Shown here: positions 12,751-39,148 of the stretch, one piece after another
Layout of the letters: the number at the start of each line of letters is the position of its first letter
How positions within the stretch are numbered: the first letter of the stretch is position 1
IMG/VR virus record: IMGVR_UViG_2534681836_000019
Source of the DNA: a virus
Lineage: Duplodnaviria > Heunggongvirae > Uroviricota > Caudoviricetes
Direction: 5' to 3' (one strand)
Length of the DNA: 39,148 bases
Notes under the pieces: generated by a model
What the model saw: only the letters and a program-made list of their open reading frames with translations
The model's database searches: none
What the model was told of the DNA's origin: nothing
Translations under genes and position numbers: made by a program

Positions 12751-12807
12751 GTTCTACACCTGCAAAAAAGCCCCGGATAACCGGGGCAAATGATGAGTAT
12801 CGTCCTG

Positions 12808-13551: not shown

Positions 13552-13561
13552 TACCACCTCC

Positions 13562-14538: not shown

Positions 14539-14549
14539 CCCACACCTCT

Positions 14550-15186: not shown

Positions 15187-15227
15187 AAAAAGCCCTTACG
15201 GGCCATCAGAGTTGTTGTCTGCGACGT

Positions 15228-17186: not shown

Positions 17187-17199
17187 CCTGAACCAGGAA

Positions 17200-21016: not shown

Positions 21017-21024
21017 TATTCCTC

Positions 21025-21582: not shown

Positions 21583-21699
21583 GTTTATTTATATATTTCA
21601 ATTAATTGCAAACTGGTCTAATGACAGGGAGAAAGAAATATTGTACAGGTGAAAAGAGAAATAACTTTTAATTATCAATAAATTACCAAACATGCTGCC

Positions 21700-21800
21700 G
21701 CCGCCATGGAAATGCAAAAACTAGCCTTTTTCCGCGACGCTCCCGCCCCGTGGCAGGGGCCCCCACCGGGAGGACCCGACAGCCTGACAGCCTGACAGCC
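21700..21800 (-). other. cos: Cohesive end site cos (cosN candidate at 21737-21748, minus-strand sequence GGGCGGGAGCGT)
   Basis: Minus-strand sequence CGGGTCCTCCCGGTG...ACG GGGCGGGAGCGT CGCGG aligns with lambda GGGTCCTTTCCGGTG...ACG GGGCGGCGACCT CGCGG; lies just upstream of Nu1. Confidence 0.75.
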
Positions 21801-21936
21801 GTGATGAGCATCTGATACAGCGCTTTACATAATGGCATAGGAATAATTCAGAAGGACATCACAGCATGCCCACACAAATTAGTGTGAGTGTCCTGTTTCT
21901 TCCTACGCACAGGACTGACGAGCATGAGGGGAAAAT

Positions 21937-22104
21937 ATGCGAACCATAAATGCCTCATCTTCAGCAATGCAACCGGCATCCGAACAGGACGATATTGTAA
22001 ATTCACCTAATTACGAGGACATTGCAGTAGTTGAATTGCAGCTCTGTATTAGCCTGACAGTGACAGAATGCGATATTGACTCTGTCACAGGTGAAATAGT
22101 TTGA
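21937..22104 (+). CDS. Hypothetical small protein (55 aa)
   Basis: ATG preceded by GAGGGG Shine-Dalgarno at good spacing; below the ORF-track length cut-off; no recognisable homology. Confidence 0.35.
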   Translation: MRTINASSSAMQPASEQDDIVNSPNYEDIAVVELQLCISLTVTECDIDSVTGEIV

Positions 22105-22124
22105 ATGATTAGCAGTTATGGTGC

Positions 22125-22331
22125 TCAGTCAACCACCAGGGAATAATCCTTCGAATTCTTATCGTGCTTCACCAACGCTGCCTCAATTGCCCTGAATGCT
22201 TCCAGAGACACCTGATGTTCTATACATGCAATTACAACATCCGGGTAACTCATAGAAATGGTGCTATTAAGCATATTTTTTACACGAATCAGATCCAACG
22301 AGACTTCATCAGCAGATTGTTCTTTATTCAT
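22125..22331 (-). CDS. Hypothetical small protein (68 aa)
   Basis: ORF in the accessory region between cos and ydfO-like gene; no recognised motif. Confidence 0.4.
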
Positions 22332-22631
22332 TTTGTCGCTCCATGCGTTTGCTCGTCATCTAGCGGTTAAAATATTACTTCAAATCTTACTGCATAAAAG
22401 AGGAAAAGTATGAAAGTTTGAGTACATCGACCTTACATACATCTGTCGGTTGCATATCCCTCCTGGATGCCAGCAAGGCTCAATTTTGTTACGCAATCAA
22501 CACTATTCATTAAAAACAGGCTTAATATTTGACATAAATCATCAACAAAACACAAAGAGGTCAGACCAGATTGAAACAATAAACACGATAATGCTAACTA
22601 CGCGCCATCGTATCACATGGAAGGTTTACCA

Positions 22632-23042
22632 ATGGCTCAGGCTGCCATTTTTAAAGAAATATTCGATCAAGTGCGTAAAGATTTAAACTGTGAATTATTT
22701 TATTCTGAGCTAAAACGTCACAATGTCTCACTTTATATTTACTATTTAGCCACAGATAATATTCACATTGTGTTAGAAAACGACAACATAGTGTTAGTAA
22801 AAGGACTCAAAAAGGTTGTAAATGTTAAATTCTCCAGAAACAAACATCTTATAGAGACCTCCTATAATAAGTTGAAATCAAAAGAAATCACATTTCAACA
22901 ATACAGGGAAAATCTTGCTAAAGCAGGAGTTTTCCGATGGGTTACAAATATCCAGGAACACCAAAGATATTACTATGCCTTTGATAACTCATTACTATTT
23001 ACTGAAAGCATCCAGAAAACTACACAGATCTTACCACGCTAA
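22632..23042 (+). CDS. ydfO: YdfO-like protein (136 aa from second Met; longest ORF starts at 22617)
   Basis: Synteny with Qin (nohQ, ydfO, gnsB, cspI); a possible hairpin follows the stop. Confidence 0.55.
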
Positions 23043-23193
23043 ACCATAACGTCCGGCTTCTCTCACTCCTGAGCCGGACTGCATTGGTTTAATAAAAACC
23101 ATCAACAATTGTGATTTAGATATTCGGAACCATTCAAATATAACAAAACCCCGTAAAAACGAGGTTTATGGATAAATTTTATTATTGAATACA

Positions 23194-23366
23194 TCAGATT
23201 AAATTAATCTTGACATCATAGCTTTCAAGACCCGTCATTTTTTCCCGTGCGGTAAACTGAATACTGGTAACTTCTTTCCCGGTCTTTTTCTTAAGTTCAA
23301 TAATTTTTTTGTTATATATTCAGAAATATCTGCTTCTGCTTTTGTTTTTAAGTTTTCAATATTCAT
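23194..23366 (-). pseudogene. gnsB: gnsB-like small protein gene, reading frame broken by a 1-nt deficit in a homopolymer
   Basis: Frame 1 gives MNIENLKTKAEADISEYITKK then stops early; one extra A in the 7-T run at 23304-23310 (plus strand) would give ...IIELKKKTGKEVTSIQFTAREKMTGLESYDVKINLI*, close to GnsA/GnsB as recalled. Confidence 0.6.
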
Positions 23367-23537
23367 CATTTCCTCTTTTAGTCTGTTATGACTTTCCAGT
23401 TACACAGTAAGTCGATTATATGGTGCAAACGTGTAAAAGATAAGATGAAACATCGCAATAATCAACATACGATAGTCTAAATTTTACACAAACAGACAAA
23501 GAAAATTTTCCTGAATTATCAATACAATAGCATCAAA

Positions 23538-23729
23538 TCAACTCAAGAGCCTTATTGCTGCTTCCAGAATTTCTTCTGAAGTAACATGTCGATCCGCGGC
23601 TACATAAATGACTTTATGATCTCCGGTCAGAGATGGAAACCCTGCGGCCATTACAGTAAGGTGTGTTTTTTCGCCATTTGGATATTCACGCATGATGGTG
23701 TTAACTCCAGTCATCGCTGGCACTACCAC
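23538..23729 (-). CDS. Hypothetical small protein (63 aa)
   Basis: ORF between the gnsB-like gene and cspI-like gene; function unknown. Confidence 0.35.
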   Translation of the reverse strand: MVVPAMTGVNTIMREYPNGEKTHLTVMAAGFPSLTGDHKVIYVAADRHVTSEEILEAAIRLLS

Positions 23730-24037
23730 TGCTGGTTCAGAGTTAAAAAAACTATGATTTTTTCATGATGTTACCGTAGTATGTGAGTATCCATCGAATA
23801 GATACCAAGCAAAAAAGCTCCCGAAGGAGCCTTCATTTTCACTTTTTTAAATCCAACGACAGACGGCTGGCATTTAAGTATTGTGAAATATTATCAAATG
23901 TAATCATCATTGATTTACAAAAGATACATTTTGCCCCGAAAGGATTCATGTCAGAAACATCAAAAGATGATGTTCTATACTGGGAACCATGACAACACGG
24001 GCATCTAAAGTGAATATGGTTTGTAATATTGTCTACC

Positions 24038-24250
24038 TCAAAGCGCCACTACATGAACAGCGGCAGGACCTTTAGGTCCGTTCTCAATACCAAATTCAAC
24101 TTCCTGATTCTCAGTTAATGTTTTGAAATCGTTGCTCTGAATTGCTGAGAAATGGACAAACACATCTTTGCTGCCATCTTTCGGCGTGATGAAACCAAAA
24201 CCTTTTTCAGGGTTAAACCATTTCACTAAACCAGTCATTTTGTTAGACAT
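24038..24250 (-). CDS. cspI: Cold shock protein, CspI-like
   Basis: 70-aa [41 protein letters not shown]... with RNP1/RNP2 cold-shock-domain motifs. Confidence 0.9.
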
Positions 24251-24612
24251 AATTATTACCTTTTGAAGAAATTAGCCCTTGGGCAGAATGGTCCGAAAAA
24301 AAATATCAGAGAGAAAAACCAACAAGGAAATCTCAAGAGGTACAAATAATAAAATTATAACAATGACTGCTTCAGATAAATTTGTAACAAACCAGAACAC
24401 CATTAACGCATGATTAACCACCCATAGCAAGGATTACTTTTGTAAAGAAAAACACAGCAATGAAAGAATAGCTTTATTTATTAATAAAACGTGTCATTCT
24501 GATTAAGACCTTTTATCTTACCCTTAAGATTTCAGGAATTTTGGCTCATGGAAGAGTCCTTTTTATTTAAATTTTACATTCCGCGATGTAAATGTTCCGA
24601 TTTAATATTACC

Positions 24613-25636
<1,024 letters not shown>

Positions 25637-25640
<4 letters not shown>

Positions 25641-25948
25641 ATATATTTATGATGAGGACGCTCGTGCTTATTGGCAGGATTTTCAATCTTAAAGGAGTAC
25701 TGATGCTGCAGATAAGACTCAACTTTTTCTGACAATTTTTCTGCTACTTCCAGGAAGACTTGCCGGACGCTCCTTCTGGCTGCTGCCTCATAAAACTCCA
25801 GCGCAGCTCCTTCAACACGGTCCATGGCGACATCCAGGTCAAAAATTTCACCGTCAAAGCGTTCCTTGTCCTGTAAGGCTACAGTTACCGTAACTTTATT
25901 CTCAAAATTACGGACTCCTTTCACAACCAGTTCATAGTCTTGAGTCAT
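25637..25948 (-). CDS. ydfR: YdfR-like protein (103 aa), inserted between holin and endolysin
   Basis: ORF tightly coupled between holin stop and endolysin start; same position and size as ydfR in Qin. Confidence 0.6.
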
Positions 25949-25952
25949 TGGA

Positions 25953-26168
25953 TTACTCTCCTCTCGCAGCCTTACGCCTGTCTTCTTTAATCTTGAAATA
26001 AAGATTTGTCAGATACGTCAGCAGGCCAAAAACCAGGCTACCCAGCACACCGATTGCAGCCCACTGTGACGGAGTTACTTTATCGAGTAACTGTAATGCC
26101 CAGAAACCAGCATTACCCGCCGATGTGCCATAGGCAACACCTGTTGTTAACTTATCCATTGATTTCAT
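25953..26168 (-). CDS. S: Pinholin (phage 21 S-like class II holin) with dual-start motif MKSMDK; longest ORF starts at 26246
   Basis: [71 protein letters not shown]: two transmembrane segments, charged C-terminus, Met1/Met4 dual start. Confidence 0.9.
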
Positions 26169-26387
26169 ATCCTCACCCCGATGTACACGGATGGTGCAAT
26201 ATGTTTGAAAAAGATCGGAGTCTACGGGGTAGTTTTGACAGCACACGTTGTTCTCAACGGCGCTAAAGAAACATACACATTAAAAATGTGAGTAATTATT
26301 TTGAAAGAAAGTCATATATAAAATAATAATACGAGAAATGTTTTCATATTTAGTGTACTGTATACGGCCATTATACAGGAAAAGCCT

Positions 26388-26558
26388 ATGTCAGAACGTA
26401 AAGACTCAAAATCACGCCGTAATTATCTCGTTAAATGTTCCTGCCCAAACTGCACCCAAGAGTCAGAACACAGTTTTTCAAGAGTACAAAAAGGTGCCCT
26501 TTTGATCTGCCCTCATTGCAACAAAGTATTCCAGACAAATCTTAAAGCTGTAGCCTGA
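26388..26558 (+). CDS. Small zinc-ribbon protein (56 aa, CxxC...CxxC), possibly YnfU-like
   Basis: MSERKDSKSRRNYLVKCSCPNCTQESEHSFSRVQKGALLICPHCNKVFQTNLKAVA; below ORF-track cut-off; AT-rich promoter-like region upstream, hairpin downstream. Confidence 0.55.
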   Translation: MSERKDSKSRRNYLVKCSCPNCTQESEHSFSRVQKGALLICPHCNKVFQTNLKAVA

Positions 26559-26620
26559 TTGATTTTATTAGTAACAAGTATTTTTTATATTTTAATAATA
26601 TATTTAAAGCAGATAATAAA

Positions 26621-26640
26621 AAACCCGCCTGAGCGGGTTT
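26621..26640. terminator. Hairpin terminator (possibly bidirectional)
   Basis: aaacccgc-ctga-gcgggttt stem-loop, A/T-rich on both flanks; 62 nt downstream of the zinc-ribbon ORF. Confidence 0.5.
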
Positions 26641-26921
26641 GAGATTGTGGTGCTTTTTGTGGGAGTCATCCACTTACGCACTTTGTTTTGCGATGCCAGC
26701 AGTTAGCTTCTGCTGTGAAACTATTCATGCAGCAAACCTGCACTTCACCACAATGGTTAGCATACTTTTCCTGATTAAGATTTTGCCAAATATGCTAGCC
26801 ATTGTTTCATGTATTGGACCTCCTTACTTTTTATTAAAGAGATCCAATATTCACTACTCTGTCCGTATCTCTACTCAGGCATCAGCCTTCTTCGTTATCG
26901 TATACAGACGAGCGATGAATT

Positions 26922-27137
26922 TTAATCAGTAATGATGACATTTGCTGCTGCAGGACCTTTAGCACCTCTCTCTATAGAGAAGGTAACCTTTTGACCTTCA
27001 AATAAGGTTCGATAATTATCATTCTGAATCGCAGAAAAATGCACAAACACATCTTTACTACCATCAACAGGAGAAATAAAGCCGAAACCTTTATCAGCGT
27101 TAAACCATTTTACTAAACCAGTCATTTTATTTGACAT
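26922..27137 (-). CDS. cspB: Cold shock protein, CspB-like
   Basis: 71-aa [41 protein letters not shown]... with cold-shock-domain motifs. Confidence 0.9.
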
Positions 27138-27435
27138 TCTACATTCCTTAACTTGAGCCTTTCGGCATAAATGGTTTGCATAACAGAAACGACTTCGTAC
27201 TTAATTGGAGAGACTCAAAGAAGGAATAAGTGAATAACACCTGAAATGAGAACTGCTTTAGTAAACTACTTCGTATATCGTCTGTTCTTCAAACCGACGC
27301 AGTCATTAACTCATAGTTGAACATATGAAGCAATGTTTATTTTAGACATCCAGCCACCTTCAATCCTATCAAAAAAGTAGTTTTCTCCAGGAACGTGTGT
27401 ATGGTGCACCAGGTTATCAGTATTAAGGAGTTTTT

Positions 27436-27690
27436 CTGTCCCCTAAAATGACAGGAATTGTCAAAAACTTTGACTACAAAAGCAGCAAAGGTCTTATATT
27501 CCCATCCGATGGCGTATCGATGCCCAGCTTCACGTTTCAGCTCTCAATCTTCGAGATGCAGAAGAAATTACCACAGGATTACGCGTGGAATTTTGCTGGA
27601 TAAATGGTTCGCGTGGACCTTCAACTGCCAATGTTTATCCCGGGATGAGATTCAATATCTCTATTGCCCCATTTAAAGCACAAAAACCCG
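27436..27690 (+). pseudogene. cspF: cspF/cspH-like cold-shock gene, apparently frameshifted and lacking an in-frame stop before the terminator
   Basis: Frame X gives (CTG)[25 protein letters not shown]; the X-1 frame continues [42 protein letters not shown], matching the CspF/CspH family as recalled; junction near 27513. Confidence 0.55.
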
Positions 27691-27706
27691 CTTATAAGCG
27701 GGTTTT
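27683..27706. terminator. Bidirectional rho-independent terminator between cspF-like gene and Q (candidate tR-prime for the late transcript)
   Basis: aaaacccgc-ttat-aagcgggtttt perfect stem-loop with T-run on the plus strand and A/T tract on the other side. Confidence 0.65.
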
Positions 27707-27812
27707 CTACTTTTTTCTAAACGTCGGATACACAAAGCCCATCGTTGAGAAAATCTTATCCATATTTTTTGAAAAATGCAAACATCATGTCGCCATCTTC
27801 AGCAAAAATCAT

Positions 27813-28565
27813 TTATCTCGTCACCTTCCTCAATTGCGCTTCCGCGTATGCTTCTTCCTGCCAGCACTTTGTTACCAGTTTACCAATGACGTCCGCATAC
27901 CCCTTATACCACTGATAATCGGTCAGGTCTGGTACCAGCTTCTGGACATGACGTCGTGCCAGCGTGGTCGGTAAACGACTAAACCGGTTTCCATTACAAC
28001 GCCCACAAATCTTATATACCGGTACGCCATGAAACCGGGTTCTTTTTTCATCCAGAACAATCCCTTTACCCTTACACCCTCTGCACGCTGTGCTGACTTC
28101 GCCCTTACCATGGCAATGCTGACATAGTTCCTTCACCCATTCTTCCTTGATTACAGATTCCCCGCGTCTGTAGTGTTTCACCACTTCGCGCAATACATTA
28201 TAAAATCCCGTACCTGAACAATGCTCACAGCGAGCCTTACTTGCCGCAGACCTGGAGTAATCAGCAAAGGCAAAATTCACGAGGTAAGGAATAATCTGTA
28301 ACCGGATTTCTTCACTCAATTTGTTCAATGTCGGGTTATCCAGTGCCATCGCGTAATTTAGCAGGCCTTCAATCGCAAACTGAGCGTCCTGAACACCAAC
28401 TTTTGCCAGAAATAAGGCCAACCCAAGTGGTGCTTTCGACTGCACCATCCCCTGCGCTGCCATTACATCCGTAATTGTTAAACAACCGGTGCCTGTCGCT
28501 GGAGCGTCATCGCTCAATTTTGGAGATTTTGGGGAGTAATATTTTGGTAAGGCTTCAAGGTTCAT
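27813..28565 (-). CDS. Q: Late antiterminator Q (QuuQ-like, zinc-finger type); longest ORF starts at 28595
   Basis: 250 aa from Met11; Cys/His clusters [30 protein letters not shown]; position upstream of the lysis genes. Confidence 0.85.
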
Positions 28566-28578
28566 GCTCGTTCTCCAC

Positions 28579-29667
28579 TTACGCCAGTACGCCAATTGCC
28601 AGCGCGCGATCGATAAAACGAAATATCAGCTCCAGTTGGGAGCCATACTTCTCTTCAAATGCCACTGTATCCGTATGCAGCTCGTTGTGATGCTTTCTGC
28701 ACAAAGGCAACACAAAGAGATCATGTGCTTTTGTTCCCATTCCGCCCTGCCCGTGACCAATCAGATGATGCGGATCGTCGGCTGGCATACCGCAGCAAGC
28801 ACACGGCTGTGTCTTAACCCAACGTGTGTATTTCTCCTTAACCCAGCGGCGACGTTTAGGCAGCTTCATGAAAGATTCCGGAGACTCTGGATCAACGGTG
28901 ATGCTTACCACCGCCTTTTCCTGTGGTGTTTTTTGTTGCTGGTGGGCGTAAGGCAACGGTGCAAGATTTTTTGTGCGTTGTTTCAATATGCTGGTGGCGG
29001 TCTGCTCTCCCGGTACGATGTCGCTTTCGCGGTACACCGAGCAGATTTTTTCCGCTGGTAATCCCAGCGAACGACGCGATACAGCCTCAGGTAGTGCATC
29101 CACCACCTGATTGCAGACCGCCCACCAGGATAATTCAGCCAAAGATAATTCCCGCTCCTGCGTACCGCTTATTGCGTGACGGATGACGTCAATCACCCAT
29201 GCTGTCAGATTTTGTTGAGCAAGCAGCTCCAGTGATTCCGATGTCTGGTCACGCAGTTGGTTGTCGCAGTGCCAACACAACACCATTGCGCCGGTACCAT
29301 AACGGTGAATGACTGTTTCAGAGTGATGGTAATCGCCATTAGGCCACTGGCAGGATGTAACATGACGTAATAGCCAGTCAGACAATGCGCCAACACCGCC
29401 AGCAGCACGAATCACCCGTTCGTTACTAAAAAACGGCAGCAATGTTTTGTCTTCCGCCAGCGACTGGCGAACGGCAGGAACGACTCCGGATGGCAGATTA
29501 CGCATGCTTTTTGGTTCCGGTTCCACCAGCACTCGAGGATTATGAAATATCTGTATGGATTCACGGCCCGGCTTAAGGACCACCAGCCCAAGCTCAGGCA
29601 CCAGAACAGGTCTAAGTAATACCCGCACGTTACCTCCAGATCCGTTGCTGGAAAGTGCGGGACGCAC
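28579..29667 (-). CDS. ydfU: DUF968-like protein (YdfU-like) with C-terminal HNH/zinc-finger-like motif; true start uncertain
   Basis: C-terminal CACCGMPADDPHHLIGHGQGG...CRKHHNELH motif; position immediately upstream of Q as in Qin. Confidence 0.65.
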   Translation of the reverse strand: MRPALSSNGSGGNVRVLLRPVLVPELGLVVLKPGRESIQIFHNPRVLVEPEPKSMRNLPSGVVPAVRQSLAEDKTLLPFFSNERVIRAAGGVGALSDWLLRHVTSCQWPNGDYHHSETVIHRYGTGAMVLCWHCDNQLRDQTSESLELLAQQNLTAWVIDVIRHAISGTQERELSLAELSWWAVCNQVVDALPEAVSRRSLGLPAEKICSVYRESDIVPGEQTATSILKQRTKNLAPLPYAHQQQKTPQEKAVVSITVDPESPESFMKLPKRRRWVKEKYTRWVKTQPCACCGMPADDPHHLIGHGQGGMGTKAHDLFVLPLCRKHHNELHTDTVAFEEKYGSQLELIFRFIDRALAIGVLA

Positions 29668-29908
29668 GTGGTGGGCGTTCGGAGTAAGGCAATCTGACTG
29701 AGATTATCCAGTGACGGTAGTCGAGGCTAAGGGCTTTCTTAACCTCGTATCCGCGCCTGCGGTAACACTGAATTATCCATTCAGCCTGCTCTTCAGTGCA
29801 TGGAGGGTGTTGGAACCATTCAGACTTGAATGCGTGAGAATACCGCTCGTGCGTGCAGACAAGAACGGGCGAATTATCAGAATTGTAATATTTTACGTTG
29901 CGTGCCAT
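29630..29908 (-). CDS. Hypothetical protein (92 aa)
   Basis: ORF upstream of and slightly overlapping the ydfU-like ORF; could be a separate gene or a displaced N-terminal part. Confidence 0.35.
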   Translation of the reverse strand: MARNVKYYNSDNSPVLVCTHERYSHAFKSEWFQHPPCTEEQAEWIIQCYRRRGYEVKKALSLDYRHWIISVRLPYSERPPRASRTFQQRIWR

Positions 29909-29974
29909 CGGTTTTCTCCGGTGGCACGGTGTTACTCAGCGGGAGTTCAGCCCCGCGCAAGATTGTAGATGAGT

Positions 29975-30226
29975 TTATTCTTCTGCAAAAGCTGAAAAGC
30001 CTGCTTTTATTCCGATCTCTTTCAGTGCCTGTAATGAAGTGACAAACTCACCTTCGCGCAAGATAAATCCGTCTGTCACTCGACCATCCACAAAATTAAT
30101 TAACGCAGCCCCATTCTTTCGCAAACACATAATGCGGTAATGACTAACAAAATTTCCATTTTCAACGCACACAGCATAGAGGCCATCTTCACAAAAAATT
30201 TTACGCAGTTCTTCGATGTTCATCAT
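29975..30226 (-). CDS. rem: Rem-like hypothetical protein (83 aa)
   Basis: 83-aa ORF between ydfU-like gene and hokD, same size and position as rem in Qin. Confidence 0.55.
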   Translation of the reverse strand: MMNIEELRKIFCEDGLYAVCVENGNFVSHYRIMCLRKNGAALINFVDGRVTDGFILREGEFVTSLQALKEIGIKAGFSAFAEE

Positions 30227-30345
30227 CAGAATCCTTCCGGATAATTAGCTCTCCCCTTTAAGGGACCATCCCTCTTATCCCTGCGCGCTACTTAAGTATT
30301 TTTGATTCTATTCCGGCACCGTCCAGAACTTCAAACGCGTTGAAA

Positions 30346-30374
30346 ATAAAAACAAAAACCCGCCGAAGCGGGTT
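30346..30374 (-). terminator. Rho-independent terminator of the relB-relE-hokD operon
   Basis: aacccgc-cgaa-gcgggtt hairpin followed on the minus strand by TTTTTGTTTTT, about 70 nt downstream of the hokD stop. Confidence 0.65.
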
Positions 30375-30442
30375 AAGTGCGGGTGCGTTGAGGATGCCTG
30401 CCACATCAGAGGTGGCGAGGGATTTCTCCCTCGCCGGGTTTC

Positions 30443-30598
30443 TTACTCCTCAGGTTCGTAAGCTGTGAAGACAGCGACCTCCGTCTGGCCGGTTCGGATT
30501 CGTACCTCGCAGAGGTCTTTCCTCGTTACCAGTGCCGTCACTATGACGGTTAAACAGATGACGATCAGGGCGATTAACATCGCCTTTTGCTGCTTCAT
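30443..30598 (-). CDS. hokD: Hok-family membrane toxin HokD (RelF)
   Basis: Manual translation: MKQQKAMLIALIVICLTVIVTALVTRKDLCEVRIRTGQTEVAVFTAYEPEE (51 aa); below ORF-track cut-off. Confidence 0.9.
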   Translation of the reverse strand: MKQQKAMLIALIVICLTVIVTALVTRKDLCEVRIRTGQTEVAVFTAYEPEE

Positions 30599-30669
30599 AG
30601 CCTGCTTCTCCTGTCAACGCAAAGCAGAAGTGTCACCTTCGGTGCGAAACAGAGATGTCATGCTTTGGT

Positions 30670-30957
30670 TCAGAGAATGCGTTTGACCGCCTCGCTATAT
30701 ACTTCCGAGCGTTCTCTTTTCCCAACAGAAATCACGAAAACGACAACTTTCTCGTCTATAACCTGGTATACAAGGCGATAGCCTGAAGACCGGAGCTTAA
30801 TCTTGTAACAATCAGGCATACCACGGAGCTTGTTTGCTTCAATCCGGGGTGACTCAAGTACTTCAACCAGCTTCTTTTTCAACTGTTCACGTACCGTCGA
30901 GCCCAGCTTTCGCCATTCCTTTAGTGCCCGCTCGTCAAAATCCAGAAAATACGCCAT
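30670..30957 (-). CDS. relE: mRNA interferase toxin RelE
   Basis: 95-aa ORF MAYFLDFDERALKEWRKLGSTVREQLKKKL..., recognised as E. coli RelE. Confidence 0.95.
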   Translation of the reverse strand: MAYFLDFDERALKEWRKLGSTVREQLKKKLVEVLESPRIEANKLRGMPDCYKIKLRSSGYRLVYQVIDEKVVVFVISVGKRERSEVYSEAVKRIL

Positions 30958-31196
30958 CAGAGTTCATCCAGCGTCACACGTACTGGCTTAGGATTACGAA
31001 GCCGTTCTTTCACTATCTCCACAAGTTCAGCATCTTCATCACTCAGGAGTGTCTGTTTGAACGGCAAGCGTTCATTGTCAGCGATATACTCGAGCATGAG
31101 ACGAAGCGCTTCAGAAGGAGTTACACCCATTTTTTCAAGCGCGGCGTAAGAACGCGCTTTAAGTTCATCGTCAATACGCAGGTTAATGCTACCCAT
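30957..31196 (-). CDS. relB: Antitoxin RelB
   Basis: 79-aa ORF MGSINLRIDDELKARSYAALEKMGVTPSEALRLM..., recognised as RelB; stop overlaps relE start. Confidence 0.95.
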   Translation of the reverse strand: MGSINLRIDDELKARSYAALEKMGVTPSEALRLMLEYIADNERLPFKQTLLSDEDAELVEIVKERLRNPKPVRVTLDEL

Positions 31197-31204
31197 GTCT
31201 TACA

Positions 31205-31265
31205 CCTCTTGTAATTACAAATGTCATTACAAGTATCGCACTACAACATGCTTAGGGCAAGTCAC
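31205..31265 (-). promoter_or_regulatory. relBE promoter/operator region (relO-like inverted repeats)
   Basis: Minus-strand CTTGTAATGACATTTGTAATTACAAG (31208-31233) contains inverted TTGTAAT repeats just upstream of the relB start. Confidence 0.6.
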
Positions 31266-31526
31266 GAAGGAAGTCAGAAAGTAGTCGTAAGAACGGTGAT
31301 CACTGTCCGCTTTGTGCCAGGAGCAGCCATTGCTAAGTCCATCCTGTATTGTGCAGGTCAGCTCGTTTTTAAAGAGTCCGGCCATCATCTTACTGGTACA
31401 GACACCATATACTTTGTGACGGTCAGGCTACATATGCACAACTCAACTTATTCATCTATTTTTTGCTTTAGCATGTCAGTGTTGCTTTCTCGTCGGCGGG
31501 TGAGCGGTGACCTGACCTGTCGATAA
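31221..31526 (+). CDS. Hypothetical ORF (101 aa) in the relB-flxA divergent intergenic region; may be non-coding
   Basis: ORF only; its ATG lies inside the rel operator; no RBS or motif support. Confidence 0.2.
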   Translation: MSLQVSHYNMLRASHEGSQKVVVRTVITVRFVPGAAIAKSILYCAGQLVFKESGHHLTGTDTIYFVTVRLHMHNSTYSSIFCFSMSVLLSRRRVSGDLTCR

Positions 31527-31680
31527 AGGAACGTAGCACGTTTTATGCAACACCCGCATGCGGCAGAAAATTATTGCCGAACGTTTACCCCTGTCAACAA
31601 GCTTTACTTTCTGAGGCGCGCCAGCCCGCGAGGAAAACAATCTGAACATCAAACAATTAATGACACAAGAAATACGATTA

Positions 31681-31707
31681 AAGATTTTTTTGTGCATGCC
31701 GATAGTG
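31681..31707 (+). promoter_or_regulatory. Sigma-28 (FliA)-type promoter for flxA
   Basis: TAAAGATT (31681-31688), 11-nt spacer, GCCGATAG (31700-31707), close to consensus TAAAGTTT-N11-GCCGATAA; about 20 nt upstream of the flxA start. Confidence 0.6.
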
Positions 31708-31728
31708 CTTTTTTAAAAGGAGAAATCT

Positions 31729-32060
31729 ATGTCTGTCACAATTCAGGGAAATACCTCAACCGTTATTTCAAACAACTCCGCCCCGGAAGGAACATCAGAA
31801 ATAGCCAAAATCACAAGACAAATTCAGGTGCTGACTGAAAAGCTTGGGAAAATCTCATCGGAAGAGGGGATGACGACACAGCAGAAAAAAGAATGGCTGC
31901 ATTGGTACAGAAGCAAATTGAAAGCCTCTGGGCTCAACTGGAGCAGTTGTTAAGGCAGCAGGCAGAGAAAAAGAATGAAGACGCGACAGTTCAGCCTGAT
32001 AAAAAAGAAGAGAAAAAAGACGATACAAATACCGCTGGCACCATTGATATTTACGTCTAA
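31729..32060 (+). pseudogene. flxA: flxA, reading frame interrupted by a 1-nt deficit in an A6 run (intact ORF is 31729-31953, 74 aa)
   Basis: Frame 1 MSVTIQGNTSTVISNN...TTQQKKE then shifts; the -1 frame continues MAALVQKQIESLWAQLEQLLRQQAEKKNEDATVQPDKKEEKKDDTNTAGTIDIYV* to 32060; one extra A at 31885-31890 restores a 110-aa product. Confidence 0.65.
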
Positions 32061-32075
32061 GTGACAGCCGTATTG

Positions 32076-32100
32076 TGGCCCTCATCGGGCCACTTTTCGC
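32076..32100 (+). terminator. Candidate rho-independent terminator downstream of flxA
   Basis: gtggccc-tcatc-gggccac hairpin followed by TTTTCGCC. Confidence 0.45.
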
Positions 32101-32444
32101 CATCAGCCTTTTCTTTAAAGACATATTATCTTTGTATCATTTCTGATAGTTAACATTACAAGATATAAGTAATGGACGCACTCCCAATTAGTCTATTTAA
32201 ATCGCCACGAGTTTAACTGACAACCCATGATCAATTATGAATTGCAACTATTTCTGTAGTCACTTTTGTGGGGACAGTCCACAAAACTGCCAACTTCCGC
32301 TTCTTGCTCTTAGCGGACATTAGCATAGGCTATTTGCCATAACGCCTCATTACGCGCACCGCCCAGACTGACTCAGCGCGTTTCTGGCATATCCCCGGTA
32401 AAACAAGTAACAAACCACCCGAAAATGAACACCAGAAACGCGAC

Positions 32445-33840
32445 TTAAGAATCTACCCTATGAATGGATATGCACTCAACCGAATCGATCTTGGTTTCAA
32501 TCTTTTTTATCGGGATCAGGCTTCTTTTTAGGTAACTTCGGGGGCTTAACTTGCTGATGACTTTGCGTTCGGCGCGTAAGCCAGGGATGGTCAGCTTTAG
32601 GTTTAACATAGTATTTTGAGCGTAAATCAATACGGGCATTATCCACTCGTTCATGGACACTCTTTTCATCATCCAGTGGTATAGGCTCCGGGCCATCAAC
32701 ATACTTTTCCCAGCCCAGCGCTTTCCCGTCATACAGAACGTTAATTTCACCGTCAAAGTTCTCGCATACAGTAACAACCGAATGCCTAAGTCGATATCCC
32801 CGGCCCTCACTGCGTACCTGAAACGCACTGCTTTTGTACTGGAAAGTGAGATTTTTAGACAGAACGCGCTTCGCCTGTAGGCTGAAGATATAACCCAGTT
32901 CCTCTTCAGAATGGTGCACATCAAGATGAGCATTATCAGTAGTACGAGGCGACGTAGCGAACCGGTTGTTATAGGCTTCAATAAAGGTCGGCAACCATGC
33001 ATTTGCTGTTTCAATATCACTGATATTCTGAAGCCGCATTTCTTTGACCAGCCTGTCCTGTAGTGTCTGATTGGCGCGCTCTACCCGCCCTTTTGCCTGC
33101 GGGCTGTTGGCATGGATTGGCTCGATGCCCAGTGTCTTTATCGCACGAGTGAACTGGGTACAGCTCACCTTCCCGCTCTGGGTTATTTACCCTGAATATA
33201 CTGTGTCTATCAGAGTAGAGAGCGAGCGGTACGCCATGATCATTAAGGTAACCCCGGAGGGTTTCCATGTAAGCCCGGGTTGTTTCAGCAGGCACAAAAC
33301 GCAACGCCATCAACGCACTGGTGGCATCATCAATGAAAACGATCAGTGTACATCTGGGGCCTCGATTTTCAAACCAGTCATGAGGTGAGCCATCAATCTG
33401 GATCAGTTCACCGTAAGATGGTCGTCGCATGCGGCGTTGATATATACGGGCAATTTTACGACGGCGTTCACGCCATACCCCCTCTTCTATCATCCACTTT
33501 CTGAGAGTTTCAACGGATAAAGATAAACCGTGTATCTCACGCAATTTTTCGCACGCAAACGTAGGTCCAAAATCAGCGTAACGGCCTTTGAGGAGTGAAA
33601 TTACTGTTGCTCTGAATTCAGTAGAAAAGGAATTATTAGGACGCTTTCCACGTCGGGGGGAAACCAGACCAGAAGGCCCTTCATTTCTATACCGTTGCAC
33701 CAGACGTTTAACCTGCCGAATAGAAATGCCAATGCGTGCCGCAGCTTGTTCCTGAGTAATATGTCGATTAATTGACTCCTGAATAATCTGAAGTCGGTGG
33801 AGTCCTTATGACTCATCGTAACAGTCTCTTTGATCATGAA
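32445..33840 (-). mobile_element. IS-like element remnant: HTH plus rve-type (DDE integrase core) transposase gene, split across at least two frames
   Basis: Minus-strand ORFs 33017-33700 (HTH-like IGISIRQVKRLVQRY, then IQIDGSPHDW...YSDRHSIF) and 32497-33168 (GRVERANQTLQD); frame break near 33150-33170 inside the catalytic core; N-terminal start also out of frame; ends not defined. Confidence 0.7.
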
Positions 33841-34206
33841 AAATCCCCCAGAGAATTGTCTGGGGACATTTTAGAATGGTTCAAAGGGGACATTACAGCT
33901 TGGTGTTAACACATCATAGCCCCTCCATTGCCTTCCGGCGGTTATCGGGCTACTATAATGTTGTCTAGGCATTACAGTGGAGCCCTTGGTTGATTGATAA
34001 AAAAATCTCCAGGGGCTTTCTGCTGTATACCGTCCACAAAACGCTTTCGGCATACAGCCTCAAGCGCCCGCAGCTATTCCAACGACTTTCGTATCTGCAA
34101 CAATCCTTTTATTCGCACGGCTAATTCCTCTGGTTAGCTCTTATCGCCTGCAAATAAATTTTTAACCTTTCCGTTTGATTTAAATTCCAGAAATGGAGAC
34201 TTTGTC

Positions 34207-35415
34207 ATGTCTTACAATCGACAGCCTGTCGCAGAAGATCCTATGCAGATATGGGGCGCTGTTGGTGTCCTTCTTATCCTGCTGCTATTCGTTATATGGT
34301 TATTCTTGCCGGAAGTGGTTTACGCCAGCTGCCTGATTCTTCATACCTTATGGGGACTGGTTGACTGGGGACCATTTCATAACTATGCAGCACCACGATA
34401 CAACCTGCTTGCCATGACCGGTAACAACGCCGCCAACATAAGCTATAGCCAGTGGGTTAACGTCATGGAGCAGACCATAGGTATTCTGTGGATGTACCTC
34501 TTACCTGTGACACTCTGGTGTTTGTGGGAGTGGTATCAACATCCGGGACAAAGTCGTTTCACCCGCAGACCAGTAGATATTACCCGACTGCCACACATCT
34601 TTGCTTCGTTGTCCCCTGCTATCGCCCCTGTACTGGCAGATGGTGATCCGGAAAAACTCTTTCATGGTGGCAAACGACCTGAACGGCGGGTTGCTCTCAC
34701 CCCGGAAGCATTTGTCGAGCAGCATACTCTCATCACCAATATGCAGCTCGATGTTGCAGCTGCAAGACGATGTTTCATGGCCCAGTTGGGTAAACCTTTA
34801 ACGTCCTGGAAAGACATGGCACCACATGAAAAAGCGCTCTTTGCCATATTTGGTCTTCAGTATTTCCTGGATGATCGTAAGGCAGCATTAAAGCTCATGG
34901 ATACACTGAACCTCTCATGCAGAATTAAAAGCAAACGGGACAGTGGGAAATTCTGTACCCCTGTTTATTCACTGGCCAAATCAGCTTTCCAGAGAGTGAT
35001 TAAAAGCAACGGAGCACAGCAATGGCTGAAACAACATCGCTACGTCCGCAGTGGGCTGGTCTGGCTGTATGCACATGACCTGCGGCTTACGCCACCCAAC
35101 TGGATTTGGCTGAAAGGCGTGGACAGGACGCTGTTTTATGCATTACACCGCGCCAATACCACGAAAGGATTTATTGAAGGCGCTGGCGTGGTGGCCGTTG
35201 CACGTGCAGAGGCCGAAGCCATGCGTTTTGGTCTTCCCTGCCCTGAACCCTGTGTTGATGAAGCGGTGGAAGGCTTACGGCGGGATATGCTCAGTCTCGG
35301 TCTTATCTGGGATGAACCACAACCAGATCGCGACCGGAAACGCCGCATCCTGACCAACTGGTCCCTCACCGACGACATCCTACCCCGCACACCTGCTACA
35401 GACAACGAATTCTGA
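34207..35415 (+). CDS. trbA: TrbA-like inner membrane protein (DotM/IcmP-like type IVB coupling complex component)
   Basis: 402-aa ORF with N-terminal transmembrane helices; first of three translationally coupled genes whose sizes (402/356/763 aa) match R64 trbABC as recalled. Confidence 0.6.
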   Translation: MSYNRQPVAEDPMQIWGAVGVLLILLLFVIWLFLPEVVYASCLILHTLWGLVDWGPFHNYAAPRYNLLAMTGNNAANISYSQWVNVMEQTIGILWMYLLPVTLWCLWEWYQHPGQSRFTRRPVDITRLPHIFASLSPAIAPVLADGDPEKLFHGGKRPERRVALTPEAFVEQHTLITNMQLDVAAARRCFMAQLGKPLTSWKDMAPHEKALFAIFGLQYFLDDRKAALKLMDTLNLSCRIKSKRDSGKFCTPVYSLAKSAFQRVIKSNGAQQWLKQHRYVRSGLVWLYAHDLRLTPPNWIWLKGVDRTLFYALHRANTTKGFIEGAGVVAVARAEAEAMRFGLPCPEPCVDEAVEGLRRDMLSLGLIWDEPQPDRDRKRRILTNWSLTDDILPRTPATDNEF

Positions 35416-35433
35416 TTATCCGGAGAACTGAAA

Positions 35434-36504
35434 ATGACAATCGAGTACTTTGCAACACGCATTGCAAAACATATTTCCGTGCAGGCAATCTGGCCGGATG
35501 GCAGGACAGAAATTATTGCCGTCCTTCCACGGGATGCCCTGTCAGGGCTGGTAACACGAAATAATCAACTGATTCATATAGCCTTTGACGCCATGGGCAC
35601 CCGTAACAGAGAAACCGTCCTGATTGATAAACAGGAGCATAACGCTGACCAGATACTTACAGCTATTGATTCCTGCCTGCGCCTTGAATATCTGATGGAA
35701 CGCCGCTTCAGCAGAACACCTTTGTTCCGTGGCATAATCGCCAGCGTTGTGCTGTTCGTAATGGCAACGATTGGCTTCTCTCTGTTCCGCTATGTTGATC
35801 GTGTATTCTGGGATGATACAACGCCTGAAGCAGTACAGACAGCAGGTGAGCCACGACTGCTTCCCCCTCACCTGAATCACACTGTGCCATTAAATGAAGG
35901 CATTCAACTCCCGGTTCCCCCGAAAAAAGACGTCCAGGTACCGGAGAAAACAATCACAAGCAAAAATCCGGAAGCCGCAGCTGCGCGACATAATCTGGCT
36001 ACTGTTCTGAAGCGGAACGCCGATCGGGGCATGTTTACCATCAACCTGTCATCCGGTCATGAACGAACCCTGTTCGCATTTCTCGATCCTGCCTGTCCTA
36101 ACTGCAGACTTCTGGAGCCGGCCTTAAAACGCCTGGCCAGCGACTTCAATGTCGTTATCTACCCGGTTTCAGTTATTGGTGGAGAGGAATCCACCGACCG
36201 TGTGGCACCACTGCTGTGTGAAAAAGATGCTCAGAAACGTGCTGCCAGCTGGCACCGACTGTATTCCGCAGATAACGGAATGATGACGCCATCAGAAGAA
36301 ACAACGCCTGCAGATGAAACATGCCTGAAAGCAGCCAGAGCTGCGATTGATGTTAACAATGTCGCCTTCCGTAAGTTCGGATTTGCCGGTACCCCATGGG
36401 TGCTGTCCGACACGGGCTGGCATCTGCCTACTGGAATTCTGCAGGAAACTGGCACGCTTAATTTATTCCTGAAAACCACCGACAGCGAGTCTGGCCATGA
36501 GTGA
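35434..36504 (+). CDS. trbB: TrbB-like thioredoxin-fold protein (DsbC-like thiol:disulfide interchange)
   Basis: 356-aa ORF with central transmembrane segment and CxxC active-site motif (FLDPACPNC); stop overlaps trbC start. Confidence 0.65.
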   Translation: MTIEYFATRIAKHISVQAIWPDGRTEIIAVLPRDALSGLVTRNNQLIHIAFDAMGTRNRETVLIDKQEHNADQILTAIDSCLRLEYLMERRFSRTPLFRGIIASVVLFVMATIGFSLFRYVDRVFWDDTTPEAVQTAGEPRLLPPHLNHTVPLNEGIQLPVPPKKDVQVPEKTITSKNPEAAAARHNLATVLKRNADRGMFTINLSSGHERTLFAFLDPACPNCRLLEPALKRLASDFNVVIYPVSVIGGEESTDRVAPLLCEKDAQKRAASWHRLYSADNGMMTPSEETTPADETCLKAARAAIDVNNVAFRKFGFAGTPWVLSDTGWHLPTGILQETGTLNLFLKTTDSESGHE

Positions 36505-38788
36505 ACATCGCGTTAACCCCGAGCTTTTACACCGTACAGCCTGGGGAAATCCTGTCTGGAATGCACTCCAGAGTCTCAATATCTATGGCTTTTACCTGGT
36601 GGCAAGTCTTGTGGCCAGTTTTATCTGGCCACTTGCATTACCGGCATGTCTGTTGTTCACACTGATAACGATGCTGGTATTTAGTCTGCAGCGATGGCGC
36701 TGCCCTCTTCGTATGCCCATGACGCTGGAATGTGCTGACCCGTCACAGGACAGAATGATTAAAAGAAGTCTTTTCAGCTTCTGGCCAACCCTGTTCCAGT
36801 ATGAGGTCATTCTGGAATCACCGGCCAGCGGCATATTCTATGTTGGTTATCAACGCGTCAGGGATATTGGCAGGGAGTTATGGCTGAGTATGGACGATCT
36901 GACCCGCCATATAATGTTTTTCGCCACCACCGGTGGCGGTAAAACGGAAACCATCTTTGCCTGGGCGATTAACCCACTTTGCTGGGCAAGAGGATTCACC
37001 CTTGTCGATGGCAAGGCACAGAATGATACGGCAAGAACGATCTGGTATCTGGCCAGACGCTTTGGACGTGAAGACGATGTGGAAGTCATTAACTTCATGA
37101 ACGGAGGAAAATCCCGCAGTGAAATCATTCTGAGTGGTGAAAAAACGCGTCCTCAGTCAAATACCTGGAATCCCTTCTGTTACAGCACTGAGGCATTCAC
37201 AGCGGAGACAATGCAGTCAATGCTGCCCCAGAACGTCCAGGGGGGCGAGTGGCAGTCCCGGGCCATTGCCATGAATAAGGCACTGGTATTTGGTACTAAA
37301 TTCTGGTGTGTGCGCGAAGGCAAAACAATGTCGCTGCAGATGCTCCGTGAACATATGACTCTCGAAGGGATGGCCAAACTTTACTGTCGTGGCCTCGATG
37401 ATCAGTGGCCGGAAGAAGCTATCGCACCGTTACGTAACTACCTTCAGGACGTTCCCGGTTTCGACCTGTCGCTGGTCAGGACACCATCAGCCTGGACGGA
37501 AGAACCCAGAAAACAACATGCTTATCTCTCCGGGCAGTTTTCTGAAACTTTCAGCACATTCACGGAAGCATTCGGGGATATTTTTGCTGAAGATTCCGGT
37601 GATATCGATATCCGTGACAGCATTCACAGCGACAGGATTCTGATGGTAATGATCCCCGCTCTGGATACATCAGCGCATACAACGTCTGCTCTTGGACGAA
37701 TGTTTATCACCCAGAAAAGTATGATTCTCGCCCGTGATTTGGGCTACCGCCTCGAAGGAACTGATTCCGATGCACTGGAAGTCAAAAAATATAAGGGGCG
37801 TTTCCCTTATCTGTGTTTCCTTGATGAAGTGGGGGCATACTATACGGACCGTATTGCTGTGGAAGCCACTCAGGTGCGTTCACTGGATTTTGCTCTGATT
37901 TTGATGGCACAGGACCAGGAACGTATAGAAGGACAGACAACAGCCACGAATACTGCAACACTGATGCAGAACACGGGGACAAAATTTGCCGGCAGGATTG
38001 TCAGCGAGGGTAGTACAGCCAGAACGCTGAAAAGCGCCGCCGGTGAAGAAGCCAGGGCGAGAATGAACAACCTACAGCGTCAGGACGGCATATTTGGTGA
38101 ATCATGGATTGACAGCCCACAAATCAGCATCCTAATGGAAAGCAAGATAAATGTTCAGGAGTTGATTGAACTTCATCCTGGCGAGTTCTTTTCTATTTTC
38201 CGGGGAGAAACCGTACCATCAGCATCATTCTTCATCCCTGACGATGAGAAAAGCTGCAGCAGCGATCCCGTGGTTATAAACAGGTATATCAGCGTGGATG
38301 CGCCACGCCTGGACCGTCTCCGCCGTCTTGTTCCCCGTACTACTCAACGTCGAATACCGTCACCGGAAAATGTCAGTGCCATCATTGGCGTCCTGACTGC
38401 AAAACCCTCCAGAAAAAGACGAAAAATTCGCACAGAGCCGCACACGATCGTGGATACATTCCAGCAACGCATTGCAGGACGTCAGGCGGCTATGGCAATG
38501 CTGGAAGAGTACGACACGGATATCAACGCACGTGAAAGTGCCTTGTGGGAAACAGCGGTGAATACGCTAAAAACGACCACACGGGAAGATCGACGAATTC
38601 GCTATATCACGCTGAACAGACCAGAACTACCTGAAACAAAAGAGGAAAATCAGATATCAGTGAGAGCAGAAAGAGCAGGTATAAACCTGTTAACGCTTCC
38701 ACAGGACAATAACCACCCGACAGGGCGTCCTGTAAACGGGTTTCATCATAAAAAAACCAACCGTCCGGACTGGGACGGAATGTACTGA
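36497..38788 (+). CDS. trbC: TrbC-like type IV coupling protein ATPase (DotL/IcmO, VirD4/TraG family)
   Basis: 763-aa ORF; N-terminal transmembrane helices, Walker A FFATTGGGKTE, Walker B-like LCFLDEVG. Confidence 0.7.
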   Translation: MSEHRVNPELLHRTAWGNPVWNALQSLNIYGFYLVASLVASFIWPLALPACLLFTLITMLVFSLQRWRCPLRMPMTLECADPSQDRMIKRSLFSFWPTLFQYEVILESPASGIFYVGYQRVRDIGRELWLSMDDLTRHIMFFATTGGGKTETIFAWAINPLCWARGFTLVDGKAQNDTARTIWYLARRFGREDDVEVINFMNGGKSRSEIILSGEKTRPQSNTWNPFCYSTEAFTAETMQSMLPQNVQGGEWQSRAIAMNKALVFGTKFWCVREGKTMSLQMLREHMTLEGMAKLYCRGLDDQWPEEAIAPLRNYLQDVPGFDLSLVRTPSAWTEEPRKQHAYLSGQFSETFSTFTEAFGDIFAEDSGDIDIRDSIHSDRILMVMIPALDTSAHTTSALGRMFITQKSMILARDLGYRLEGTDSDALEVKKYKGRFPYLCFLDEVGAYYTDRIAVEATQVRSLDFALILMAQDQERIEGQTTATNTATLMQNTGTKFAGRIVSEGSTARTLKSAAGEEARARMNNLQRQDGIFGESWIDSPQISILMESKINVQELIELHPGEFFSIFRGETVPSASFFIPDDEKSCSSDPVVINRYISVDAPRLDRLRRLVPRTTQRRIPSPENVSAIIGVLTAKPSRKRRKIRTEPHTIVDTFQQRIAGRQAAMAMLEEYDTDINARESALWETAVNTLKTTTREDRRIRYITLNRPELPETKEENQISVRAERAGINLLTLPQDNNHPTGRPVNGFHHKKTNRPDWDGMY

Positions 38789-38858
38789 ACAGTGGCCGCG
38801 CCGGATTCGAACAAACGCAACTATTGCACAGTTCTAAACCTGACTGCCCCTTAGCCAG

Positions 38859-39148
38859 TAGACTGGCCCCCTGAATCTCCAGACAACCAGTATCACTTAT
38901 TTAAGTGATAGTCTTAATACTAGTTTTTAGACTAGTCATTGGAGAGCAGATGATTGATGTCTTAGGACCGGAGAAACGCAGACGGCGTACCACACAGGAA
39001 AAGATCGCAATTGTTCAGCAGAGCTTTGAACCAGGGATGACGGTCTCCCTCGTTGCCCGGCAACATGGTGTAGCAGCCAGCCAGTTATTTCTCTGGCGTA
39101 AGCAATACCAGGAAGGAAGTCTTACTGCTGTCGCCGCCGGAGAACAGG
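38859..39148 (+). mobile_element. IS2 left end (partial; continues beyond window end)
   Basis: TAGACTGGCCCCCTGAATCTCCAGACAACC... matches the IS2 terminal inverted repeat region as recalled, followed by the insC start. Confidence 0.85.
38950..39148 (+). CDS. insC: IS2 transposase OrfA (InsC), partial
   Basis: [66 protein letters not shown], truncated by window end. Confidence 0.85.

Follow-up and report, generated by a model that had tools for sequence, protein, structure and literature searches.

A hok-targeting ISEsa1-like transposition unit as the probable joint between a Qin-type prophage and IncI1 plasmid trb genes in Escherichia coli DEC9C

The IMG/VR virus record IMGVR_UViG_2534681836_000019 (hereafter the window, meaning the whole stretch of 39,148 nucleotides that was analysed) corresponds to an entire draft contig, AIGM01000026.1 (39,148 bp), of assembly GCA_000249935.2 from Escherichia coli DEC9C. 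The contig was recognized through a 74-residue FlxA fragment produced by one of the private frameshifts of the window. This stx-negative O26:H11 strain of sequence type (ST) 29 comes from Switzerland (1952), and its 2012 draft assembly amounts to 5.19 Mb (PMC5592225). On the window, a lambdoid prophage is followed by the three conjugation genes trbA, trbB and trbC and then by the insertion sequence (IS) IS2. We propose, with a probability of about 0.58, that the contig reflects a real fusion between an IncI1 plasmid and the DEC9C chromosome, which would have been made by a 3.3-kb ISEsa1-like transposition unit (called here unit E) and later interrupted or truncated at IS2. The original prediction, which described a degenerate transposase lying beyond the phage genes, missed that this transposase forms a mobile unit together with relBE, ydfV and flxA, and that this unit constitutes the junction.

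Comparison of the window with finished sibling genomes separates it into a chromosomal and a plasmid part. The left part (1..30611) is a Qin-type lambdoid prophage of chromosomal type; after a tail fibre gene at the contig end, its tail, head, lysis and csp genes lead on to ydfT, ydfU, rem and hokD. Over positions 4000-30611 it shares 99.9% identity with the finished chromosome of E. coli DEC9B, with essentially one single-nucleotide polymorphism (SNP) outside a possibly recombinant patch in gpJ and three homopolymer indels, and this identity ends exactly at 30611/30612; identity to the prophage of E. coli O26:H11 11368 is 98.8%. From 30612 to 38858, the window matches pDEC9B-1, the 161-kb IncI1-hly plasmid of DEC9B, from which it differs by 2 substitutions and four or five 1-bp indels. 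Both substitutions lie in the region upstream of trbA and 0 inside the 3.3-kb unit, and the indels are missing from at least five independent sequences. The same two-parent picture was obtained with 7_33_46A, another ST29-like strain. In DEC9B and 7_33_46A, the prophage occupies the Qin site, flanked by ydfJ and rspB, and has its own int/xis, being likewise chromosomal in O26 11368, and trbABC is carried on a different replicon, a complete IncI1 plasmid (traH-Y, pil, excA, pnd, trbABC, nikBA, rep) whose only phage-like DNA is the 3.3-kb unit, with no phage structural genes. These matches to the DEC9B chromosome and to the IncI1 plasmid bear out the view that plasmid-derived trb genes adjoin a chromosomal lambdoid prophage. 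The phage genes had been thought to stop after flxA; phage DNA in fact ends at 30611, and relE, relB, ydfV, flxA and the transposase gene belong to one 3.3-kb mobile unit.

Unit E occupies 30612..33911 (3300 bp). It starts with TGTCAACGC and finishes with GGTGTTAACA, giving TGT...ACA ends, and its terminal inverted repeats are imperfect (21/28 matching). The cargo begins on the hokD side with a type II toxin-antitoxin pair encoded on the minus strand and reading out toward hokD, made of the toxin gene relE (30670-30957; Pfam ParE_toxin, 2.2e-13) and the antitoxin gene relB (30957-31196; Pfam RelB, 1e-32), both of which are annotated in sibling records. It continues on the plus strand with ydfV (31221-31526) and flxA (31729-32060), the latter split by the loss of one base from an A-run at 31891, a change private to the window. 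The remaining 1620 bp (32292..33911) correspond to the IS proper, which is found alone at 99.4% identity on hundreds of plasmids from Enterobacter, Klebsiella and others. At the boundary between cargo and IS (about 32292), no inner inverted repeat was found, none reaching 14/28 matches. The IS carries a transposase gene on the minus strand (32497..33837), named "IS1202-like element ISEsa1 family" by NCBI, whose distance from flxA had been estimated at about 400 bp and was measured at 436 bp.

This gene encodes 446 residues when intact and is divided into three open reading frames (ORFs) in the window by an extra A at 33160 and a missing T at 33802, both private to it. An unbroken 446-codon ORF is found in pDEC9B-1, in a pig IncI1 plasmid, in the O26 chromosome and in Salmonella and Enterobacter plasmids. 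The intact transposase of pDEC9B-1 reaches 463 bits on the NF033594 (ISNCY_2) model (cutoff 250), against 238 and 175 bits for the window fragments, and for the 227-residue frameshifted fragment of the window no protein is on record. Seven private 1-bp indels distinguish the window from its finished siblings (23303, 23744, 23757, 31891, 33160, 33802 and 34112), mostly in homopolymer runs; they are probably pyrosequencing-type (454-like) errors that create false frameshifts in flxA, in the transposase gene and in the cspF region. Two single-base indels alone thus split the window gene, and its degenerate look, taken at face value in the original prediction, is most likely an artefact of draft quality. 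In a similar way, RefSeq calls the unit E transposase a pseudogene ('incomplete, missing C-terminus') in E. coli records (for example L001 20438-21778, L002 and L003, where L numbers designate the loci compared), and these copies have an intact ORF differing by 1-4 amino acids from Salmonella and Enterobacter plasmid copies annotated as functional.

We compared the window unit with other copies (L003 24675-27975, L001 18552-21852 and L009-L012 1501-4801). Among 5426 complete E. coli genomes, 760 contain the complete unit at 99.4-99.9% identity, as do 16 PLSDB plasmids representing three genera; about 1350 genomes have an empty hokD site. K-12 strains keep positions 1-2070 of unit E at 99.9% identity with the same hokD junction, and the gene called 'ydfW' is the C-terminal tail of the transposase. 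The well-known relB-relE-hokD arrangement of K-12 (relBEF, in the Qin prophage) shares its left junction and its relE-relB-ydfV-flxA-ydfW sequence with the window. The K-12 unit is truncated on its transposase side, so that its mobile nature is not obvious there, whereas the window unit is complete and joins two replicons. As for the 1620-bp IS found alone, two copies (L013 and L014, 1501-3120) adjoin the nickel-resistance genes ncrC-ncrY on Enterobacter and Klebsiella plasmids. They have a common left flank and differing right flanks, so these copies have been rearranged; one of the right flanks leads to psiA-psiB, where the hok loci of IncF plasmids lie.

Members of the IS1202 family have TGT/ACA ends, imperfect inverted repeats of about 25 bp and a TnsB-like transposase of 440-450 residues; one subgroup makes long duplications, passenger-carrying 'tIS' forms exist, and for ISEsa1 neither a duplication nor a target was found (Harmer and Hall 2023, PMC10132070). 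Unit E resembles IS1202 and the tIS forms in its ends, its inverted repeats, the size of its transposase, its long duplications and its passenger genes. It differs from ISEsa1 as published by 14-16-bp duplications, by a target at the hok start codon and Shine-Dalgarno (SD) sequence, and by 1.68 kb of cargo bounded by the outer inverted repeat.

The target was deduced from the flanks of unit E in different replicons. The left end of the window unit abuts the chromosomal target ATAGCCTGCTTCTCC (30597..30611), which extends from the start codon of hokD through its SD sequence. The hokD gene (30443..30598, minus strand) encodes a Hok/Gef toxin of 51 residues (Pfam HOK_GEF, 1.2e-23) and is annotated as such in DEC9B and O26. 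The right end abuts the plasmid-type target CATCATAGCCCCTCCA (33912..33927), running from the start codon of pndA through its SD sequence. Occupied and empty sites were then found on both kinds of replicon. On the O26:H11 11368 chromosome, unit E lies in the hokD leader between 15-bp direct repeats of ATAGCCTGCTTCTCC, and the DEC9B and 7_33_46A chromosomes have a single ATAGCCTGCTTCTCC followed by an intact hok leader. On pDEC9B-1, where the unit lies in pnd directly upstream of trbA, and on four other contigs, it sits at the pndA start codon between 16-bp repeats of CATCATAGCCCCTCCA; the same site is occupied, with a 15-bp repeat, in the pig IncI1 plasmid and in a Salmonella IncI-gamma/K1 plasmid, and ordinary IncI1 plasmids have an empty pnd with a single copy of the target. 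Enterobacter IncF-type plasmids carry the unit in their own hok gene, at the homologous position, with a repeat (A)TGGCCTTCTTCTCC of 14 or 15 bp.

Each duplication corresponds to the local target sequence, which implies no fewer than three independent transpositions, all into one and the same position of three different hok-family loci. As judged from these flanks, unit E appears always to insert at the start codon/SD region of hok-family toxin genes with duplications of 14-16 bp. No description of unit E or of hok targeting was found in the open-access literature. A homologous double crossover was considered as the origin of the plasmid copies and was ruled out, both duplicated flanks being plasmid-type. 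Two further observations concern these loci. In the window, the Sok-type antisense RNA and leader of IncI1 pnd (33912..34069, minus strand; Rfam RF01794 sok, 133.5 bits for a gathering threshold of 59, model positions 1-157/157) are separated from the toxin gene pndA, and hokD stands on the other side of the unit without its own leader. The insertion would thus rewire both type I toxin-antitoxin loci, with relBE predicted to read into hok. Also, the Enterobacter kobei plasmid pDW108-119542 (L012 1501-4801) has unit E flanks that do not match each other (left ...CATGGTTTACTCCTCC, right ATAGCTGACTTCTCC...), suggesting that here too two hok loci took part in a recombination or a cointegrate.

The window copy of unit E is peculiar in the same respect, since it is flanked by the chromosomal target on the left and by the plasmid target on the right. 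One copy with one flank per replicon is the signature of a replicative cointegrate or of recombination between two copies. Of the two joints expected from a cointegrate, each with a directly repeated copy of the element, the contig contains one, with fitting flanks; the second (pndA, unit E, hok leader) would be found on a different contig or would have been lost by deletion. Moreover, at the hokD/unit E junction every base agrees with the corresponding junction at the occupied site of O26 11368, which argues for a genuine transposition-type joint rather than an artefactual overlap between an empty site and a plasmid. The assembly broke at IS2 (1.3 kb) on the right and at a tail-fibre repeat on the left, yet it runs continuously through the 3.3-kb unit, suggesting that unit E and trbABC are both single-copy in the DEC9C assembly. 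The 26 other contigs read that encode the exact TrbB protein (26/26) are also continuous through unit E, always with plasmid flanks. The intact transposase of the sibling plasmid pDEC9B-1 was likewise counted in favor of the fusion.

We propose the following sequence of events. Unit E would have resided on the ~161-kb IncI1-hly plasmid of the ST29 O26:H11 lineage, at the pndA start codon upstream of trbA, and the hokD leader of the chromosomal Qin-type prophage would have offered a homologous target. The plasmid-borne unit may then have attacked this leader by copy-in (replicative) transposition or, equivalently, plasmid and chromosomal copies of the unit may have recombined. Either route would give the order chromosome-hokD, unit E, pnd leader-trbABC and the rest of the plasmid. 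An IS2 event 70 bp past trbC would subsequently have interrupted the integrated plasmid or deleted its remainder, by insertion, by adjacent deletion or by recombination with an IS2 of the DEC9B type located 618 bp from hokD. Recombination between IS2 copies or adjacent deletion would remove the rest of the plasmid together with the second copy of unit E, leaving hokD-E-trbABC-IS2-DUF4209, an outcome that would fit both a single-copy unit and the small 5.19-Mb assembly. We infer the existence of the join in the cell, the replicative mechanism and the IS2-mediated truncation from these comparisons. Transposition is slightly favored as the route, given that hokD is unoccupied on the chromosomes of the closest finished relatives. 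IS1202-family transposases are TnsB-like (PMC10132070), and unit E encodes no TnsA-type partner. This second point also favors transposition, if only by analogy: from the biology of Tn7, a TnsB-like transposase lacking its TnsA partner is expected to act by copy-in.

Several points weigh against a fusion made in this way. The join rests on a single 2012 draft contig with 454-like indel errors, and the order hokD-E-trbABC was found in none of the 5426 complete E. coli genomes and in none of the 26 exact-TrbB contigs read. If DEC9C has two copies of unit E, one on the chromosome and one on a plasmid, the contig may have been misjoined across a 3.3-kb repeat. Replicative transposition is, moreover, a putative mechanism for the IS1202 family. 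On the right side, the window IS2 shows 6 mismatches over 290 bp with the hokD-adjacent IS2 of DEC9B, leaving the deletion variant unsupported.

Two other explanations have to be taken seriously. In an assembly chimera, the mis-join that the original prediction had also allowed, unit E would be present both in the chromosomal hokD and in the pnd locus of a free IncI1 plasmid, the repeat would have been misbridged, with chromosome kept on its left and plasmid on its right, and trbABC would belong to a complete plasmid with an IS2 insertion after trbC. The source being a draft with private homopolymer-type indels, the length of unit E (3.3 kb) exceeding the reads of that era, the sibling strains having a plasmid with the unit, the frequent occupation of chromosomal hokD in other E. 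coli (the 760 genomes above) and the uniqueness of the arrangement among all searched genomes are as expected from such an error. However, the same assembly stopped at the shorter IS2 and at the tail-fibre repeat and not at unit E, and since the closest finished relatives have an empty hokD, a chromosomal copy in DEC9C would need a new transposition; even so, the hokD/unit E junction would be real. Thus, we consider a chimera rather unlikely. We hold a similarly reserved opinion of a real fusion formed in the Hfr manner, without transposition into hokD, by RecA-dependent homologous recombination between the plasmid copy of unit E and one already present in the chromosome. Recombination between copies would leave hybrid flanks just as well, hokD is occupied in those same 760 complete genomes, and the E. 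kobei plasmid copy has likewise mismatched flanks, but DEC9B and 7_33_46A lack a chromosomal copy and the window unit, with 0 substitutions relative to that of pDEC9B-1, displays no segment of chromosomal type, though a chromosomal copy could be identical. For this reason, the search for a SNP switch point between chromosomal and plasmid halves inside unit E was uninformative.

The two remaining explanations appear far less probable than these. A phage-plasmid, or a plasmid bearing a whole prophage, would place the prophage and trbABC on one extrachromosomal replicon, as their presence on one contig invites one to think and as the original prediction had allowed. In ST29 'new French clone' O26:H11 strains, IncI1 plasmids of 132-163 kb were described, most of them with hlyA, AidA-I, lda and a 'phage-related sequences' flag given by PHASTER (PMC5592225, Table 4). 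These plasmids are probably of the same type as pDEC9B-1 and the flagged sequences probably the relBE-flxA unit. Given that the sibling genomes keep a Qin-site prophage and a 161-kb IncI1 plasmid apart, with chromosomal prophages flanked by ydfJ and rspB and plasmids that bear only the 3.3-kb unit, a phage-plasmid seems highly improbable. Equally hard to credit is an IS-bounded composite transposon that would have captured trbABC and moved into the prophage. IS elements do lie on both sides of the genes, so that the description of the fragment as IS-bounded stands in this sense; they are unrelated, however, one ISEsa1-like (IS1202/ISNCY) and the other IS2 (IS3 family), the junction is accounted for by the duplications and the target of the unit to which the left one belongs, and the segment was found nowhere else as a unit. 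Bounded by two unrelated IS and with its far end beyond the contig, the fragment does not qualify as a composite transposon.

On the plasmid side, the three predicted genes lie on the plus strand at 34207-35415 (trbA), 35434-36504 (trbB) and 36497-38788 (trbC), as announced, and their assignment to the IncI1 proteins TrbA (a DotM/IcmP-like membrane protein), TrbB (probably thioredoxin-like, with a CxxC motif) and TrbC (a DotL/IcmO-like type IV coupling ATPase) agrees with DNA identity and, for TrbA and TrbC, with Pfam and NCBIfam models and with PDB matches. The 4.7-kb region 34100-38850 shares 99.6% DNA identity with trbA-trbB-trbC, in the same order, in about 1400 IncI-type plasmids hosted by Escherichia, Salmonella, Shigella and Klebsiella. 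The exact TrbB protein is present in 441 index blocks, with a plasmid context in every contig read (26/26). TrbA matches Pfam DotM_C (1.6e-49) and, in a PDB sequence search, Legionella DotM/IcmP (6exe/6sz9_B) at about 1e-8 to 2e-8. It scores 75 bits on the DotM/IcmP equivalog model NF033890, whose cutoff of 230 is not reached, and is classed on these scores as a homologue of DotM/IcmP, not an equivalog. TrbC reaches 1042 bits on NCBIfam NF041447 TrbC_conju (cutoff 800) and aligns with Legionella DotL/IcmO (6sz9_A) at 2.3e-61 in the same PDB search, so that the proposed comparison with the Legionella proteins holds for both. TrbB has a CPNC motif and a weak Thioredoxin_2 match (21.7 bits for a cutoff of 27), with scores far under the cutoffs of the DsbG and TrbB(F) models. 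Of the translational coupling that had been suggested for the block, trbB and trbC retain an 8-nt overlap, whereas trbA and trbB are 18 nt apart, with an SD sequence in the gap.

By sequence, these are ordinary, already known IncI1 genes of the R64 type. Indeed, this region resembles R64/ColIb-P9 in its 99.6% DNA identity, in its gene order and in the pnd leader and Sok-type RNA upstream. It differs in that trbABC is not accompanied, within the contig, by pndA, traA-Y, pil, nikAB/oriT or rep, and has chromosome on the left and IS2 on the right. The resemblance to the Dot/Icm system of Legionella covers about 500 residues between TrbC and DotL and includes the cytoplasmic DotM_C domain between TrbA and DotM. 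The proteins are only distant homologues, the DotN, IcmS, IcmW and LvgA partners are absent, and the IncI1 system is conjugative and not effector-secreting. In R64, trbA and trbC are needed for transfer and trbB for full efficiency, and TrbA, TrbB and TrbC cannot support conjugation by themselves. The contig holds no other type IV secretion system genes, as the original prediction had stated in support of a captured remnant; this is a contig-end effect, because the contig breaks inside IS2 at the point where nikB normally comes next, nikB-nikA-oriT following trbC directly in IncI1 backbones. DEC9C may carry either such a remnant or a whole integrated plasmid.

The last 290 bp of the window (38859..39148, plus strand) are the left end of IS2, beginning with the terminal repeat TAGACTGGCCCCC and encoding an orfA-type HTH_Tnp_1 piece; the contig ends inside. 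Identity to pDEC9B-1 ends cleanly at 38858, and IS2 starts 70 bp past the trbC stop, as had been noted from the window. None of the 5426 complete E. coli genomes, and none of the 26 exact-TrbB contigs read, has a trbC-IS2 junction. The 290 bp are 100% identical to a DEC9B IS2 copy lying in a tailspike gene, and an apparent extra 10-bp match to this copy was dismissed as chance similarity. The other relevant DEC9B copy (L005 27235-28570) lies 618 bp to the right of the empty hokD site, in the orientation of the window IS2, and is followed by a DUF4209 gene; 7_33_46A is without this hokD-near IS2. The comparison of IS2 copies was judged non-decisive, since contig ends inside repeats are consensus-like.

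The opposite end of the contig has features of its own. It stops within a tail-fibre gene of the prophage, of which related genomes have several copies. The left 4.1 kb (1-4100; tail fibre, lom and the start of gpJ) show merely 98.3% identity to the cognate DEC9B region, and the first 1.4 kb match better another prophage of 7_33_46A (99.7%), as is typical of repeat-driven contig ends. In the tail-tip gene gpJ, 20 substitutions relative to DEC9B are clustered at 5113-6207 and only one is found over the next 24 kb, a cluster reflecting either recombination between prophages or the collapsed-repeat consensus of a draft.

Mobile elements are already known to join plasmids to chromosomes. The window is in this respect like Hfr-type integrations and replicon fusions, whether by F through IS2, IS3 or gamma-delta or through the cointegrates of Tn3 and IS6-type elements, in which a mobile element forms the joint with one flank per replicon. 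It differs from them by an IS1202-family unit with a fixed hok-leader target, by an IncI1 plasmid and by a site inside a cryptic prophage. What is new is the strict target of the element: the ISEsa1 branch would recognize the hok start codon and SD sequence in three replicon types and three genera, and unit E hauls a second toxin-antitoxin system, relBE, as cargo. For annotation, the relBE-flxA 'phage genes' of plasmids and the 'pseudogene' transposases belong to a mobile unit, and for genome scanning a single draft contig may mimic a phage-plasmid hybrid while being one element-mediated junction. The much-studied relBEF arrangement of K-12 could also be explained simply, as the product of a unit E insertion. 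With less than even confidence, we suggest a broader model in which unit E is an active, autonomous, hok-targeting unit of the IS1202 family that moves relBE between chromosomes and IncI/IncF plasmids in several genera, that created relB-relE-hokD in K-12, and that may fuse conjugative plasmids to chromosomes at cryptic prophages by copy-in, DEC9C being a caught intermediate or remnant. Under such a model, the hok leaders would be predicted hot spots for fusion between IncI/IncF plasmids and cryptic prophages.

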